Below, piece after piece: positions 3,153 through 42,063 of a stretch of 64,000 nucleotides of DNA. Under the pieces are notes generated by a model. That model was given only the letters and a program-made list of their open reading frames with translations. It did not search any database and was not told the origin of the DNA. Origin of the DNA: Escherichia phage ECp13; the sequence record PP274704.1, one strand, 5' to 3'. Each line of letters opens with the position of its first letter. Position 1 is the stretch's first letter. Position numbers and translations under genes: made by a program.

Positions 3153-4851
3153 TTGTGTATTGACCAGATGAAATAGAACTCATAGATGCCATTTTTTCTG
3201 TCCAATCGCCACCAACGTCCCAATCAACTGTCCCAGCAACTTTCCAAGAAAGATTTCCATTTACTGTATTAGTCTGATTTCCTTCAACTAAAGTGGTAGC
3301 ATCTCCTTTAACTGTAATGTCAGCATTACCTTCAACTACAATAGTAACATTACCTTTGACTAGGATAGTTCCATTACCTTCAACCGTCTTAGTTTCATCG
3401 CCACGCACAAATATTGTATTGCTTCCATCTATTTGGTGGAGACGATTATCCATGTTGTAATAAATTTCTGATCCACCGACGTTAGTCTTTTTATCGCCAG
3501 CTACCAAAAAATTACCATCAGCATTTGTTATATCATACAAATTATCAACAGTTTTTCTTGTTCTTCTTCCTGACGGTGATACTTCCTCATATGTTCCAGT
3601 CGGATGAACTAATCTGTATCGTTCTTGCCCAGGGGTATCATCAAACTCCTGAATATGACCGCTTTCAGTTTCCATTGTATGAACATACGGATATTCGCCT
3701 TTATATGAAGAAACAGGTTCTTTAAATAAAATTCTCGAATCATTCGGAATAGGAGGGTCAGCTGGATCAGAAGACTTTGCTACAGTAGCAGCCATTGCTG
3801 ACAAAGACCTAGCCGGTGTTTTCACTTCAATACCGTATGATTCCAAATTACCCGTAAGAATAATCATGGTAACACGGGATGCACGGCCTTTTGTTTGTTG
3901 ATACCACAATGAATCACGACCAGCTTTATATGCTTTTTCCCAATCTCCGGCTAACATAGCAGTTAACATTGTGTTAAATTTAGCTACACCACCAACACCC
4001 ATCTGAAATGCCATATTTTCTAATGCCATTTGACGAGAACGATTAACTGCTTGCCAAACTGGGCCAACTTTAGAATGTGATTTAATGTCACGTTGCATAT
4101 CAGCCAAATCACGTTCAAATAAAGTTACCGCTTCTTCCATTGTAATAGAACCTGGATTTCCGGTAATTTCACGACCAACTTGTTTTGATAAAACTTTATT
4201 AATTTGAGTCATATCACGAACTGGCTGCTTCATGATAAGATGACCAATACCAATTGTCGGATATCCTTCAGTATCCCAATAAACTTTTAGTCTTAATCCT
4301 TCATCACGGCGAAGCATTTCAGCCATTGACATATTTGGATTATCATCAGTTGGAATCTCTGATAGCGGTCTATCATCGGGATTTATCGCAGTGTCTAGAT
4401 TACTGTCTTGGATAATATTAGAAGACGAATCATATCCTACTTCTCCGCCTTGGTTTAATACGTTAGTATCATTTCCTAGACGTCTAGGATACTGTCCAGT
4501 CGGGTCAGAAAATCCTTCAAGTCTATTCGGTTTTTCGCGAACTATTCCACCATACGTGCCAAGGACAATTCCGTTAGTTTTCCATTTGTCTAAAAAATGA
4601 CCATAAACTCTAGTTCCTTCTACCGGACCAGTAACGGAGCCTCCAATTCCAGACATTGCTGCAGAAGTTATAGGTTGAATAACTGACATCCATGGTAATT
4701 TATCAGTTGGAATACCCATTACATCGCCTTGTGCTCTTTGAGGTGGATGCAGACCAACTACACGAACACGAACACGACCTAATTTTAATGGGTCCATTCT
4801 ATCTTCAACAACACCAACAAACCAATTAAGGTTATTACTTATCATTTCCAT
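3124..4851 (-). CDS. 5: baseplate hub and tail lysozyme gp5
   Basis: 575 aa as in T4 gp5; internal lysozyme domain EGLRLKVYWDTEGYPTIGIGH paralogous to gene e. Confidence 0.9.
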   Translation of the reverse strand: MEMISNNLNWFVGVVEDRMDPLKLGRVRVRVVGLHPPQRAQGDVMGIPTDKLPWMSVIQPITSAAMSGIGGSVTGPVEGTRVYGHFLDKWKTNGIVLGTYGGIVREKPNRLEGFSDPTGQYPRRLGNDTNVLNQGGEVGYDSSSNIIQDSNLDTAINPDDRPLSEIPTDDNPNMSMAEMLRRDEGLRLKVYWDTEGYPTIGIGHLIMKQPVRDMTQINKVLSKQVGREITGNPGSITMEEAVTLFERDLADMQRDIKSHSKVGPVWQAVNRSRQMALENMAFQMGVGGVAKFNTMLTAMLAGDWEKAYKAGRDSLWYQQTKGRASRVTMIILTGNLESYGIEVKTPARSLSAMAATVAKSSDPADPPIPNDSRILFKEPVSSYKGEYPYVHTMETESGHIQEFDDTPGQERYRLVHPTGTYEEVSPSGRRTRKTVDNLYDITNADGNFLVAGDKKTNVGGSEIYYNMDNRLHQIDGSNTIFVRGDETKTVEGNGTILVKGNVTIVVEGNADITVKGDATTLVEGNQTNTVNGNLSWKVAGTVDWDVGGDWTEKMASMSSISSGQYTIDGSRIDIG

Positions 4852-10636: not shown

Positions 10637-10721
10637 GAATTATTTGTTATTATTAACTCATATCGCACTGATTAATACCCTCTATCATCAAGGGTTCTTG
10701 TTTGAGAGCCTTTGTTAATAA

Positions 10722-10781
10722 TTTTGGTAGAGCGCCTGATTTGGGATCAGGAGGTCCAAGGTTCAAATCCTTGTATGGAGA
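10722..10781 (+). tRNA. tRNA-Pro-like fragment (anticodon UGG), 5' part not foldable
   Basis: Perfect anticodon arm CCTGA/TTTGGGA/TCAGG and T-arm CAAGG/TTCAAAT/CCTTG, but no D-stem or acceptor 5' strand upstream. Confidence 0.3.
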
Positions 10782-10783
10782 CT

Positions 10784-10883
10784 GGAGGCGTGGCAGAGTG
10801 GTTTAATGCACCGGTCTTGAAAACCGGCAGTCGCTCCGGCGACTCATACTAGGTCGTAGGTTCGATCCCTACTGCCTCGACCA
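10784..10883 (+). tRNA. tRNA-Ser-like (anticodon UGA) with encoded CCA, atypically long variable region
   Basis: Acceptor GGAGGCG, anticodon arm CCGGT/CTTGAAA/ACCGG, T-arm GTAGG/TTCGATC/CCTAC, 3' ACCA; about 10 extra nt before T-stem. Confidence 0.45.
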
Positions 10884-36196: not shown

Positions 36197-36669
36197 TGTT
36201 ATTGACTGGCAAATTATACAAAGAAGAAAAACAAAAATTTTATAATGCACAAAATGGTAAATGCTTAATTTGCCAACGAGAACTAAATCCTGATGTTCAA
36301 GCTAATCACCTTGACCATGACCATGAATTAAATGGACCAAAAGCAGGAAAGGTACGTGGATTGCTCTGTAATCTTTGCAATGCAGCGGAAGGTCAAATGA
36401 AGCATAAATTTAATCGTTCTGGCTTAAAGGGACAAGGTGTTGATTATCTTGAATGGTTAGAAAATTTACTTACTTATTTAAAATCCGATTACACCCAAAA
36501 TAATATTCACCCTAACTTCGTTGGAGATAAATCAAAGGAATTTTCTCGTTTAGGAAAAGAGGAAATGATGGCTGAGATGCTTCAAAGAGGATTTGAATAT
36601 AATGAATCTGACACCAAAACACAATTAATAGCTTCATTTAAGAAGCAGCTTAGAAAGAGTTTAAAATGA
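36196..36669 (+). CDS. 49: endonuclease VII (Holliday junction resolvase)
   Basis: 157 aa; MLLTGKLYKEEKQKFYNAQNGKCLICQREL... matches recalled T4 gp49. Confidence 0.92.
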   Translation: MLLTGKLYKEEKQKFYNAQNGKCLICQRELNPDVQANHLDHDHELNGPKAGKVRGLLCNLCNAAEGQMKHKFNRSGLKGQGVDYLEWLENLLTYLKSDYTQNNIHPNFVGDKSKEFSRLGKEEMMAEMLQRGFEYNESDTKTQLIASFKKQLRKSLK

Positions 36670-38483
36670 CAATTGAAAAAGAAATTGAAGGATTGATTCA
36701 TAAAACTAATAAAGACCTTTTAAACGAGAATGCTAATAAAGATTCTCGTGTTTTTCCAACTCAACGGGACCTTATGGCTGGTATTGTGTCTAAACACATT
36801 GCCAAAAATATGGTCCCGTCTTTTATTATGAAAGCGCATGAAAGCGGAATTATTCATTTCCATGATATTGATTATTCCCCTGCTCTTCCATTTACTAATT
36901 GCTGTTTAGTAGATTTAAAAGGAATGCTTGAGAACGGATTTAAGCTCGGTAATGCGCAGATTGAAACTCCTAAATCAATCGGCGTTGCTACTGCAATTAT
37001 GGCACAAATTACTGCGCAGGTTGCTTCTCATCAATATGGCGGAACGACTTTTGCGAATGTAGATAAAGTACTTTCTCCTTATGTTAAACGCACCTATGCA
37101 AAACATATTGAGGATGCAGAAAAATGGCAAATCGCTGATGCGTTGAATTACGCCCAGTCTAAAACAGAAAAAGACGTATACGATGCATTCCAAGCTTATG
37201 AATATGAAGTAAATACTCTCTTTAGTTCAAACGGACAAACACCTTTTGTAACAATTACGTTTGGTACGGGAACTGACTGGACTGAACGAATGATTCAGAA
37301 AGCAATTCTGAAAAATCGTATTAAAGGCCTTGGTCGCGATGGGATAACTCCTATTTTCCCTAAGCTTGTTATGTTCGTTGAAGAGGGCGTCAATCTTTAT
37401 AAAGATGATCCGAACTATGATATTAAGCAGCTTGCTCTAGAGTGTGCAAGCAAAAGAATGTATCCTGATATTATTTCAGCTAAGAATAATAAAGCTATCA
37501 CCGGTTCATCTGTTCCTGTTTCTCCAATGGGTTGCCGCAGTTTCTTGAGTGTATGGAAAGATTCGACTGGTAATGAAATTCTTGATGGACGTAATAATCT
37601 TGGCGTTGTAACACTGAATCTTCCTCGCATTGCACTAGATTCTTATATTGGAACACAGTTCAATGAACAGAAATTTGCCGAATTGTTCAATGAACGAATG
37701 GATTTGTGTTTTGAAGCTTTGATGTGTAGAATTAGTTCCTTAAAAGGAGTTAAAGCGACTGTTGCTCCTATTCTTTACCAAGAAGGTGCATTCGGGGTTC
37801 GTCTTAAACCTGATGATGACATAATTGAGTTATTTAAAAACGGTAGAAGTTCAGTGTCTTTAGGATACATTGGTATTCACGAATTGAATATTCTTGTCGG
37901 TCGTGATATTGGACAGGAAATTTTAACTAAAATGAATGCTCGTCTTAAGCAGTGGACTGAAAGAACCGGTTTTGCTTTTAGCTTGTATTCTACTCCTGCT
38001 GAAAACCTTTGCTATCGCTTCTGTAAACTTGATACTGAAAAATATGGAAGTGTAAAAGATGTTACTGATAAAGGCTGGTACACTAATAGTTTCCATGTTT
38101 CAGTAGAAGAAAATATTACTCCATTTGAAAAGATTTCCCGCGAAGCTCCATATCATTTCATTGCGACAGGTGGTCACATTTCTTATGTTGAACTTCCTGA
38201 TATGAAAAATAACCTAAAAGGTCTTGAGGCTGTATGGGATTATGCTGCACAGCATTTAGATTATTTTGGCGTTAATATGCCAGTAGATAAGTGTTTTACA
38301 TGCGGAAGTACACATGAAATGACTCCTACTGAAAACGGATTTGTTTGTTCTATTTGTGGAGAAACTGATCCTAAAAAGATGAACACAATAAGAAGAACTT
38401 GTGGTTATTTGGGAAATCCGAATGAACGCGGATTTAATCTCGGCAAAAATAAAGAAATCATGCATAGGGTTAAACACCAATGA
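36666..38483 (+). CDS. nrdD: anaerobic ribonucleotide reductase NrdD (intronless)
   Basis: Continuous 605-aa ORF; length matches spliced T4 NrdD. Confidence 0.92.
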   Translation: MTIEKEIEGLIHKTNKDLLNENANKDSRVFPTQRDLMAGIVSKHIAKNMVPSFIMKAHESGIIHFHDIDYSPALPFTNCCLVDLKGMLENGFKLGNAQIETPKSIGVATAIMAQITAQVASHQYGGTTFANVDKVLSPYVKRTYAKHIEDAEKWQIADALNYAQSKTEKDVYDAFQAYEYEVNTLFSSNGQTPFVTITFGTGTDWTERMIQKAILKNRIKGLGRDGITPIFPKLVMFVEEGVNLYKDDPNYDIKQLALECASKRMYPDIISAKNNKAITGSSVPVSPMGCRSFLSVWKDSTGNEILDGRNNLGVVTLNLPRIALDSYIGTQFNEQKFAELFNERMDLCFEALMCRISSLKGVKATVAPILYQEGAFGVRLKPDDDIIELFKNGRSSVSLGYIGIHELNILVGRDIGQEILTKMNARLKQWTERTGFAFSLYSTPAENLCYRFCKLDTEKYGSVKDVTDKGWYTNSFHVSVEENITPFEKISREAPYHFIATGGHISYVELPDMKNNLKGLEAVWDYAAQHLDYFGVNMPVDKCFTCGSTHEMTPTENGFVCSICGETDPKKMNTIRRTCGYLGNPNERGFNLGKNKEIMHRVKHQ

Positions 38484-38950
38484 ATTATGATAGATTTTAT
38501 CCTTGCGATTTTGTGAATGGCCCTGGATGCAGGGTCGTTCTTTTCGTTACGGGGTGTTTGCATAAATGCGAAGGGTGTTATAATAAATCAACATGGAATG
38601 CTAGAAATGGCGTTCCATTCACTGGTGAAACACTAGAACAATTAATTGAATGTTTGAATAATGATTATATAGAAGGATTAACTATAACTGGAGGAGACCC
38701 TCTCTATCCTGATAACCGAGATGCTGTTCATTGCATTGTTCAAACAGTAAAAAATCTTTATCCAAATAAAAGCATTTGGTTGTGGACAGGATATAAGTTT
38801 GAAGATATTAAACAACTAGAAATGCTTAAATATGTTGATGTTATTATTGATGGGAAGTATGAGAAAAATCTTCCGACCAAAAAGCTGTGGCGAGGATCAG
38901 ATAATCAGCGACTTTGGTCAAATACCGATGGGGTGTGGAAACATGATTAA
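38480..38950 (+). CDS. nrdG: anaerobic RNR activating protein NrdG
   Basis: 156 aa; radical-SAM-like Cys cluster CLHKCEGC; ATGA overlap with nrdD. Confidence 0.9.
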   Translation: MNYDRFYPCDFVNGPGCRVVLFVTGCLHKCEGCYNKSTWNARNGVPFTGETLEQLIECLNNDYIEGLTITGGDPLYPDNRDAVHCIVQTVKNLYPNKSIWLWTGYKFEDIKQLEMLKYVDVIIDGKYEKNLPTKKLWRGSDNQRLWSNTDGVWKHD

Positions 38951-39065: not shown

Positions 39066-39278
39066 ATGTATAAATTTCGCAAAGGTTTAGCTGATTTTCT
39101 TACAACTGTAACATTCTTTCTGTTTATGGCAGTTGGAGCTATTTTCCTTATTCCTTTTATTGCTATATTTTTCGTGATTAGTTTGATTTCTCCAGAAAAA
39201 GGACTGTCTTCTAGCGAGTTCAATGAGCGTCTGGATAAAATTACTAATAAGCTGAATTCTGCTCTTAGTAAGGAATAG
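39066..39278 (+). CDS. small membrane protein
   Basis: 70 aa; hydrophobic core FLFMAVGAIFLIPFIAIFFVISLI. Confidence 0.45.
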   Translation: MYKFRKGLADFLTTVTFFLFMAVGAIFLIPFIAIFFVISLISPEKGLSSSEFNERLDKITNKLNSALSKE

Positions 39279-39280
39279 TT

Positions 39281-39589
39281 GTGAAACAGAACAAGATTGA
39301 AGTCTATGGAATTCCAGATGAAGTAGGTCGTTGTCCTGGATGTCAATCAGTTACAAAACTTCTAAAGGAGCTCAATGCTCCTTTTACTTTCTATAAAGTT
39401 CTTACAAATAATGGTAAGATTGAGTATGATCGTCCACTGATTGTATCTCTTGCTAAACGCGCTGGATTCACATCTCTTAACATTCGTTATCCAGTCATTT
39501 TCATCAATGATTCTAGACAAAAGAATATTAAACACTTCAAAGAAACTCTCATTTCACTTGGATATGATAGAGATATCATAGAAGATTAA
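39281..39589 (+). CDS. nrdH: glutaredoxin-like NrdH
   Basis: 102 aa; CPGC redox motif; GTG start after RBS AAGGAA. Confidence 0.75.
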   Translation: MKQNKIEVYGIPDEVGRCPGCQSVTKLLKELNAPFTFYKVLTNNGKIEYDRPLIVSLAKRAGFTSLNIRYPVIFINDSRQKNIKHFKETLISLGYDRDIIED

Positions 39590-39592
39590 GAC

Positions 39593-39615
39593 GGGCCCTC
39601 TGGGCCTTTCTTTCT
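39593..39615 (+). terminator. terminator-like hairpin
   Basis: GGCCC-TCT-GGGCC followed by TTTCTTTCTC. Confidence 0.5.
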
Positions 39616-39642
39616 CACATTCTGTATATTACCATTCTAAGC

Positions 39643-39680
39643 TATCGTTCCCTTCTTATCGTTCCCTTCTTATCGTTCCC
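39643..39680 (+). repeat. 14-bp tandem repeat TATCGTTCCCTTCT, about 2.7 copies
   Basis: Two perfect 14-bp units plus a 10-bp partial unit, between the nrdH terminator and an early promoter. Confidence 0.85.
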
Positions 39681-39701
39681 TAAAATAATTTTCACAAAGT
39701 T

Positions 39702-39731
39702 GTTTACAACAAGTTCAAACTGTGGTATTAT
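39702..39731 (+). promoter_or_regulatory. early promoter
   Basis: -35 GTTTACA, 17 bp, -10 TATTAT; upstream TTTCACAAAG box. Confidence 0.6.
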
Positions 39732-39761
39732 TAACATATGAATTGCCTTTGAGGATTTGAT

Positions 39762-39938
39762 ATGGTTGATAAAGAGATTAAAAGAGATCAGTATTATCGT
39801 GTTAACGGACATATTGTTATTGTTACAGCAGTAGATGATCTAGATGTTCATTATACTGTACTTAAATGGAATAAACAGATGATTTGCGATCGTGCTGTAT
39901 TTAGTTCAGTTGCTAAGGAAATTAAACTCCATGGGTAA
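39762..39938 (+). CDS. hypothetical small protein
   Basis: 58 aa hand-translated; RBS GAGGA. Confidence 0.35.
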   Translation: MVDKEIKRDQYYRVNGHIVIVTAVDDLDVHYTVLKWNKQMICDRAVFSSVAKEIKLHG

Positions 39939-41427: not shown

Positions 41428-41505
41428 TTGATATCCTCTATGCTTTAAGATAGATCTTCAAATATTATGATATAATAGATCTATGAATTGAGCTAAGAGG
41501 TGAAA

Positions 41506-42063
41506 ATGTCAGAAACTAAGCCTAAATATAATTACGTAAACAATAAAGAGCTTTTACAAGCTATTATTGATTGGAAAACAGAATTAGCAAATAATAAAGA
41601 CCCAAATAAAGTAGTTCGTCAGAATGATACTATCGGATTAGCCATTATGCTTATTGCAGAAGGCTTATCTAAACGTTTCAACTTTTCAGGATACACCCAA
41701 TCCTGGAAACAAGAAATGATTGCAGATGGTATAGAAGCTTCTATTAAGGGGCTTCATAATTTTGATGAAACGAAATATAAAAACCCACATGCATATATAA
41801 CTCAAGCTTGTTTTAATGCATTCGTCCAACGTATTAAAAAAGAACGTAAGGAAGTTGCAAAGAAATACAGTTACTTCGTTCACAATGTCTATGACAGTCG
41901 TGACGACGATATGGTTGCGTTAGTGGATGAAACTTTTATTCAAGACATCTACGATAAAATGACGCATTACGAAGAATCAACCTATAGAACACCGGGGGCT
42001 GAAAAGAAAAGTGTTGTAGACGATTCTCCTAGTTTGGATTTTTTATATGAGGCTAACGATTAA
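41506..42063 (+). CDS. 55: late transcription sigma factor gp55
   Basis: 185 aa from ATG at 41506 ([20 protein letters not shown]...); matches recalled T4 gp55. Confidence 0.88.

Follow-up and report, generated by a model that had tools for sequence, protein, structure and literature searches.

The window, by which is meant the whole 64,000-nucleotide stretch of DNA that was analyzed, is a segment of a Tequatrovirus (T4-like) genome, and its strand is opposite to that of the T4 GenBank numbering. The best 20-kb match among the GenBank phages is Shigella phage Sfk20 (98.2%). The locus of interest is the intergenic spacer between nrdH and gene 55.6. Upstream of the spacer are nrdD (36666–38483), which is a single uninterrupted open reading frame of 605 amino acids, nrdG (38480–38950), gene 55.8 (39066–39278), and nrdH (39281–39589, plus strand). 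The nrdD and nrdG reading frames overlap by 4 bp at 38480–38483, with no gene between them; the corresponding region of T4 presumably carries a mobile endonuclease gene and an intron. The nrdH gene encodes a glutaredoxin of 102 amino acids from a GTG start codon, and its homologues in T4, Lutter, and PBM-1 are annotated as NrdH glutaredoxin.

The homologue of gene 55.6 (39762–39938, plus strand) is an open reading frame for 58 amino acids and the first gene 3′ of the early promoter. A protein identical to its product matches Pfam family PF26806 (Phage_T4_Y04F), and T4 gene 55.6 is found at the syntenic position. An identification of gene 55.6 with T4 comC-alpha was considered and rejected: "comC alpha 55.6" is the name of a mutant, and comC-alpha is goF, which is located elsewhere in the genome. 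Gene 55, which encodes the late sigma factor, is found at 41500–42063. Two adjacent tRNA genes are present on the plus strand of the window at 10710–10880 (Rfam tRNA, 30.3 and 49.4 bits).

The intrinsic terminator of nrdH was identified by a terminator scan at 39593–39617 on the plus strand. It consists of the hairpin GGGCCC-TCT-GGGCCT at 39593–39607 followed by a T-rich tract. The folding energy of the RNA is −13.5 kcal/mol with a z-score of −4.0, and none of 200 shuffled sequences was equally stable. The same terminator carries a terminator annotation in phage Lutter.

An early-type sigma-70 promoter core was identified by a promoter scan at 39703–39731 on the plus strand (10/12 with TG). 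Its elements are the −35 hexamer TTTACA at 39703–39708, a 17-bp spacer, TGG at 39723–39725, and the −10 hexamer TATTAT at 39726–39731; the GTTTACA motif begins at 39702. Transcription would start near 39738 if the start site is taken as 7 nt past the −10 element. The arrangement TTTACA-N17-TATTAT fits the consensus TTTACW-N17-TAYWAT reported for the T4/PST PeSL promoters (PMC4122927) and the UP/−35/TGn/−10 architecture of T4 early promoters (PMC2988021). The activity of the promoter is thus predicted from the consensus and from the calls of other annotators, including the promoter annotated here in phage Lutter. An A/T-rich UP element, CTAAAATAATTTTCACAAAGTT, is located directly upstream at 39680–39701 on the plus strand. 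It agrees with 13 of the 15 specified positions of the UP consensus NNAAAWWTWTTTTNNAAAANNN, and its A+T content is 85%. The AAAAT..TTT..AAA..GTTTAC block (UP/−35) is kept in Mosigvirus and Jiaodavirus.

The 14-bp Array

The array occupies 39643–39681 and starts 36 bp 3′ of the hairpin of the nrdH terminator. Two complete units, TATCGTTCCCTTCT at 39643–39656 and TATCGTTCCCTTCT at 39657–39670, are followed by the partial unit TATCGTTCCCT at 39671–39681, which adjoins the UP element. There is no mismatch among the copies. Tandem Repeats Finder reports a period of 14, 2.8 copies, 100% matches, and a score of 78, which makes this the best and longest of the perfect arrays in the window. The sole array with a higher score is an imperfect one with a 24-bp period at 3277–3384 (4.5 copies, 73% matches, score of 88).

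At a lag of 14, the perfect self-match run of the array is 25 bases. The maximum obtained from 200 first-order Markov simulations was 15, with a mean of 11.5, and therefore chance is excluded as the source of the repeat. The second-longest tandem self-match of the window reaches 13 bases, and the 14-mer was not found elsewhere in the 64 kb with up to two mismatches. The earlier note had reported a perfect repeat of 2.7 copies between the nrdH terminator and an early promoter, and had called such perfect short repeats unusual. The repeat and its placement were confirmed, and its rarity holds for the window.

Copy Number among Relatives

Alignment shows that T4, Lutter, and PBM-1 have exactly one 14-bp unit fewer than the window, which corresponds to 1.7 units. 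The extra unit of the window is either unit 1 or unit 2 of the array. The repeat copies of T4, TATCGTTCCTTTCT and TATCATTCCC, are imperfect.

A search with a 108-nt query spanning the array returned 503 GenBank phage records. The best 60 of these 503 records have spans of 92–95 bases, which is equivalent to 1.7 units in all cases. A more sensitive search returned 694 records, from which a spread sample was taken; all 43 of the 43 full-length Tequatrovirus hits fit 1.7 units (spans of 372–379 versus 387–391), where the assignment allows for a 6-bp insertion or deletion at the start of gene 55.6. By the spans seen in the sampled records, approximately 500 Tequatrovirus genomes, T4 included, are at 1.7 units. 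A perfect version with 1.8 units is present in approximately 45 of the 301 records matched in a word-11 search, and among the records listed in that search none has an array region that spans more than 25 bases.

Alleles with 0.7 units were found in phages ECO07P3, ESh33, and UGKSEcP2 (L041, OV876900), and in a metagenome scaffold from ENA (L031). Among the 32 distinct loci that were fetched, 27 have 1.7 units, 4 have 0.7 units, and 1, the window, has 2.7 units. When loci were retrieved irrespective of length (n = 20), 18 were at 1.7 and 2 at 0.7 units. A degenerate pattern for the 0.7-unit junction gave no hit in IMG/VR. Three loci returned by a gapped-pattern scan of IMG/VR (L006, L011, and L012) were discarded as chance matches.

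The 2.7-unit allele is found in the window alone and comes from one assembly. Searches with the perfect 38-nt array found no match in 50,697 GenBank phage records, in IMG/VR, in JGI metagenome contigs, or in GTDB with one genome for each of 185,579 species. Variation in copy number is rare, with approximately 3 variants among about 500–580 GenBank genomes in addition to the window, which is less than 1% of the sequenced relatives. These counts were obtained from BLAST spans and allele-specific seeds and are lower bounds, from which imperfect 2.7-unit arrays and 0.7-unit alleles on other flanking haplotypes may be missing.

The polarity of the changes was judged on 663 flanking positions outside of the array. 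Between the window and PBM-1 (1.7 units), 4 of the 663 positions differ. With Lutter (1.7 units) as the reference, no differences are found for ESh33 (0.7 units) and 3 are found for ECO07P3 (0.7 units), again out of 663. For the metagenome scaffold L031 (0.7 units), the fewest differences are to the window (5 sites) and to ime09 (6 sites). UGKSEcP2 (0.7 units) differs from the other 0.7-unit alleles at 40–45 flanking sites, and its nearest neighbors are two phages with 1.7 units (11 sites). Because these flanks are nearly identical to those of 1.7-unit phages, the 0.7- and 2.7-unit alleles are recent derivatives of the 1.7-unit state. They trace back to one gain and to no fewer than two, probably three, independent losses.

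For all of the five variant alleles except UGKSEcP2, namely the window, ECO07P3, ESh33, and L031, the nearest 1.7-unit arrays are perfect or one base off. Variants that arise among identical or one-base-differing copies are what misalignment predicts. The nearest neighbors of UGKSEcP2 are less uniform in their repeat copies.

The array has the properties of a VNTR: the units are arranged head-to-tail beyond chance, the alleles differ by whole units with flanks that are 0–11 of 663 positions from the nearest 1.7-unit sequence, and the changes recur. The earlier note had proposed a slippage-prone, length-variable element, to be given up if related phages showed a single unit, no variation in copy number, and no effect on promoter activity. 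The comparison across relatives was made and the copy number varies. The proposal stands insofar as alleles of 0.7, 1.7, and 2.7 units are found in near-identical phages with at least two to three unit losses; the array is not hypervariable, however, and the variants are rare.

Other small insertions and deletions were observed nearby. The T4-type haplotypes (T4, which is L002, together with L017 and L021–L023) have 6 bp duplicated in tandem at the very beginning of gene 55.6 (39762–39770, 80 bp 3′ of the array) and read ATGGTTGTGGTTGAT where the window has ATGGTTGAT. The 55.6 product is 60 amino acids long with this duplication versus 58 in the window. The duplication is a second slippage-type indel near the array. 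An 8-bp deletion (CCATTCTA) is present in the left part of the spacer of L021 (IMGVR_UViG_2974787500_000001) and suggests that small indels build up in the spacer generally.

Constraint and Candidate Functions

Among 12 Tequatrovirus sequences, 6 of the 60 columns of the spacer at 39608–39681 are variable, compared with 11 of 101 third-codon positions of nrdH. The spacer thus changes at a near-neutral rate, and its neutrality is judged from small samples of 12–32 sequences. The left part of the spacer, ACATTCTGTATATTACCATTCTAAGC at 39618–39642, has no variable column out of 25 in the same 12 sequences. This invariant segment, or the excess of C over G in the spacer, could reflect a constraint on the spacer as a whole. 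The sequence TTCTGTATAT is also present in the Jiaodavirus phage Metamorpho, where it precedes the terminator.

The 14-bp unit is not recognizable in Mosigvirus and Jiaodavirus, and an ancient conserved element was rejected on this ground. Two distant T4-like contigs from IMG/VR (L026 and L027) have no nrdH–55.6 spacer. The −35 motif GTTTAC of these contigs is located inside the terminator hairpin (GGGTGTTTACAAGCACCC) directly after nrdH, which gives a compact, PeSL-type composite. In the same 12 phages, variable columns number 14 of 302 in nrdH versus 53 of 173 in gene 55.6. This sharp change in diversity fits a role of the terminator/promoter junction as a recombination boundary, as proposed for PeSLs.

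Several candidate elements were sought at the locus. An Rfam search, at gathering thresholds over the whole window and with permissive settings over 39400–39900, returned nothing in the spacer. The RNA from the spacer through the ribosome-binding site of gene 55.6 is no more stable than shuffled sequences, and no structure was found for the array as single-stranded DNA. An RNA element, sequestration of the ribosome-binding site, and a cruciform were each rejected on this absence of structure. A small antisense gene at 39642–39812 was also rejected, as its reading frame is 6–56 amino acids long and truncated or frameshifted among relatives. Inspection of the array by eye gave no convincing match to a MotA box, a late promoter (TATAAATA), or an IHF-type consensus.

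The composition of the spacer is extreme. The segment at 39608–39697 contains 25 C and 5 G in 90 nt, which places it in the top 0.04% of the 90-nt windows. From 12 kb onward, the spacer is the only 78-nt stretch of the sense strand with a C/G ratio of at least 4 and at least 18 C. Other gaps of at least 60 nt have C/G ratios of approximately 0.5–1.3 on a crude gene map that used ATG starts only, in which the gap at this locus also spans the GTG-started nrdH. The spacer RNA is less structured than its shuffles (z = +0.99), and every further 14-nt unit contributes 6 C and 1 G. A rut site is expected to provide approximately 70–90 nt of C-rich, G-poor, unstructured, and untranslated RNA, and the spacer offers approximately 80–90 nt of this kind beyond the nrdH stop codon.

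The spacer may accordingly be viewed as a candidate Rho-loading (rut-like) site on nrdH read-through transcripts. In this role it would back up the terminator and insulate the early transcription unit of genes 55.6–55, with the number of units tuning the effect. The Mosigvirus spacers (L024 and L015) retain a C/G ratio of 5.8–6.0 over 91–92 nt despite poor alignment, and Rho is known to terminate transcripts in the prereplicative phase of T4 (PMC2988021); both observations speak for such a site. However, with a good intrinsic terminator 5′ of the spacer, few transcripts would get that far, and all of the alleles from 0.7 to 2.7 units are maintained in nature. The spacer is also dispensable in some relatives, as L026 and L027 do without it. 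Moreover, composition by itself is a weak guide to a rut site, and the C excess comes in part from the repeat itself and from the pyrimidine tail of the terminator. A Rho-loading function is thus considered unlikely. If it were true, the recurrent gain and loss of units would offer a simple means of adjusting how far transcription of the anaerobic ribonucleotide reductase genes reads through into the 55.x–gene 55 unit, and a Rho-loading element tuned by unit number would be something new on transcriptional insulation in T-even phages.

The repeat might instead modulate the early promoter, either by an extra upstream contact with the alpha-CTD of RNA polymerase or by DNA wrapping, or through the distance between the terminator and the promoter and its helical phase. 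The array adjoins the UP element and ends at about −57. In T4, the early promoters contain information in addition to that of the canonical elements, and a subset of them is responsive to the modification of alpha by Alt (PMC2988021). The array resembles an UP element of sigma-70 promoters in that it lies 5′ of the −35 hexamer of a strong promoter, but it differs in position, composition, and consensus match. It spans −95 to −57 relative to the predicted start site, upstream of the UP, −35, and −10 elements, its A+T content is 56%, and the best match anywhere within it is to 6 of the 15 UP positions. UP elements are A/T-rich, lie at −40 to −60, and match the consensus; by these properties the block at 39680–39701 is the UP element and the array is not. 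The proposal in the earlier note that the array is an UP-like element is not borne out, the more so since the neighboring UP block is conserved across genera and the repeat is not.

A tandem duplication preserves the sequence next to the promoter, here out to approximately −82. The extra unit moves the nrdH terminator from about −117 to about −131 relative to the predicted start site, and the promoter side is otherwise constant. With the promoter elements unchanged and only the terminator shifted, no effect on the promoter is expected. The window has four other strict early-promoter-like sites, none of which is preceded by a unit-like motif, and for this reason a shared upstream motif of early promoters was rejected. 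In addition, the unit is not kept in the genera that retain the UP and −35 block, and the copy number varies without apparent penalty. Modulation of the promoter by the repeat is accordingly a somewhat more doubtful proposition than Rho loading.

An array of binding sites for a DNA-binding protein of the phage or the host, as the earlier note had also suggested, would suit the position of the repeat, since regulator sites are often laid out as direct repeats beside a promoter, and nearly every Tequatrovirus genome has the 1.7-unit arrangement. The units are mismatched in most lineages, however, including T4, and their substitution rate equals that of third-codon positions. Alleles with a single unit are viable and recurrent, and the 14-bp spacing places the units out of helical phase. 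The unit is recognizable only in Tequatrovirus, where its copy number is not conserved, and the four other early-promoter-like sites and the remainder of the 64-kb window are free of it. In operator- or iteron-like arrays the unit and the copy number are conserved above the neutral background, and neither is conserved in this manner here. Protein binding would thus be a very improbable role. An artefact of assembly or sequencing in a single genome is equally improbable as the source of the third unit: the 2.7-unit allele was found in no other sequence across four collections, but a 39-nt array is far shorter than ordinary reads and an atypical substrate for misassembly, and the reciprocal loss of one unit in independent genomes shows that ±14-bp events at this site are real.

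Origin and Significance of the Length Polymorphism

The array is most likely a length polymorphism of a non-coding spacer that was generated by slippage or misaligned recombination, and it is very probably neutral, as nothing at the locus points to a function of the array itself. The ancestral Tequatrovirus state is 1.7 units, that is, a 10-bp direct repeat, TATCGTTCCC, at a spacing of 14 bp. Similar copies may misalign, and replication or recombination would at times drop one unit to give the 0.7-unit allele or add one to give the 2.7-unit allele. The phage represented by the window carries one added unit, which was gained recently and is so far unique. This duplication leaves the UP, −35, and −10 elements intact, together with the ~24 bp immediately 5′ of the UP element. 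The alleles, the direction and recurrence of their changes, the near-neutral rate of substitution, and the position outside of the promoter elements are directly shown, and from them we infer the mechanism of slippage and the neutrality.

Both the Streisinger model of slipped strands and the picture of deletion or duplication between short direct repeats stem from classical work on T4. The array is like the Streisinger-type systems in its perfect head-to-tail units and in its whole-unit alleles within near-identical genomes. Most of the events are likewise found where the repeats are identical or one base off, and losses outnumber gains. For such systems, replication slippage and unequal homologous recombination leave the same sequence outcome.

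The phage contingency loci of T2 and T4 are homopolymers of at least 6 bases, located mostly in genes, that switch the reading frame reversibly at high rates (bioRxiv 10.1101/2025.10.21.683753, Gomez, Barrick and Waters). The array shares with them a slippage-prone repeat in a T-even genome; the contingency loci create heterogeneity among progeny, and a few of them are intergenic. It differs in its 14-bp unit, its location outside of conserved open reading frames and promoter elements, and its rare variation. Contingency loci combine a hypermutable simple repeat with the switching of a gene on and off through the reading frame or promoter spacing, and the array has neither property. It is not a contingency locus in the T2/T4 sense.

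The locus also resembles a PeSL (Comeau, Arbiol and Krisch 2014, PMC4122927) in the junction of a terminator hairpin with an early promoter and in the boundary between a conserved and a variable block. The hairpin and promoter are approximately 95–110 bp apart here and not compact, and the repeat is outside the definition of a PeSL. The distance from the end of the hairpin to the −35 element is 95 bp in the window and 81 bp in the 1.7-unit relatives, and the compact form was found in L026 and L027 only.

The array is a fresh example of a well-known kind of polymorphism, an ordinary length polymorphism, and its wider import is small. It adds to the record one site in a T-even intergenic spacer at which ±14-bp indels recur, and the analysis marks the boundaries of the UP element and the promoter at the nrdH–55.6 junction. 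The array could serve as an inexpensive strain-typing marker among close Tequatrovirus isolates. It is also a possible natural substrate with which slippage or misaligned recombination between 10-bp direct repeats may be measured under T4-type replication.
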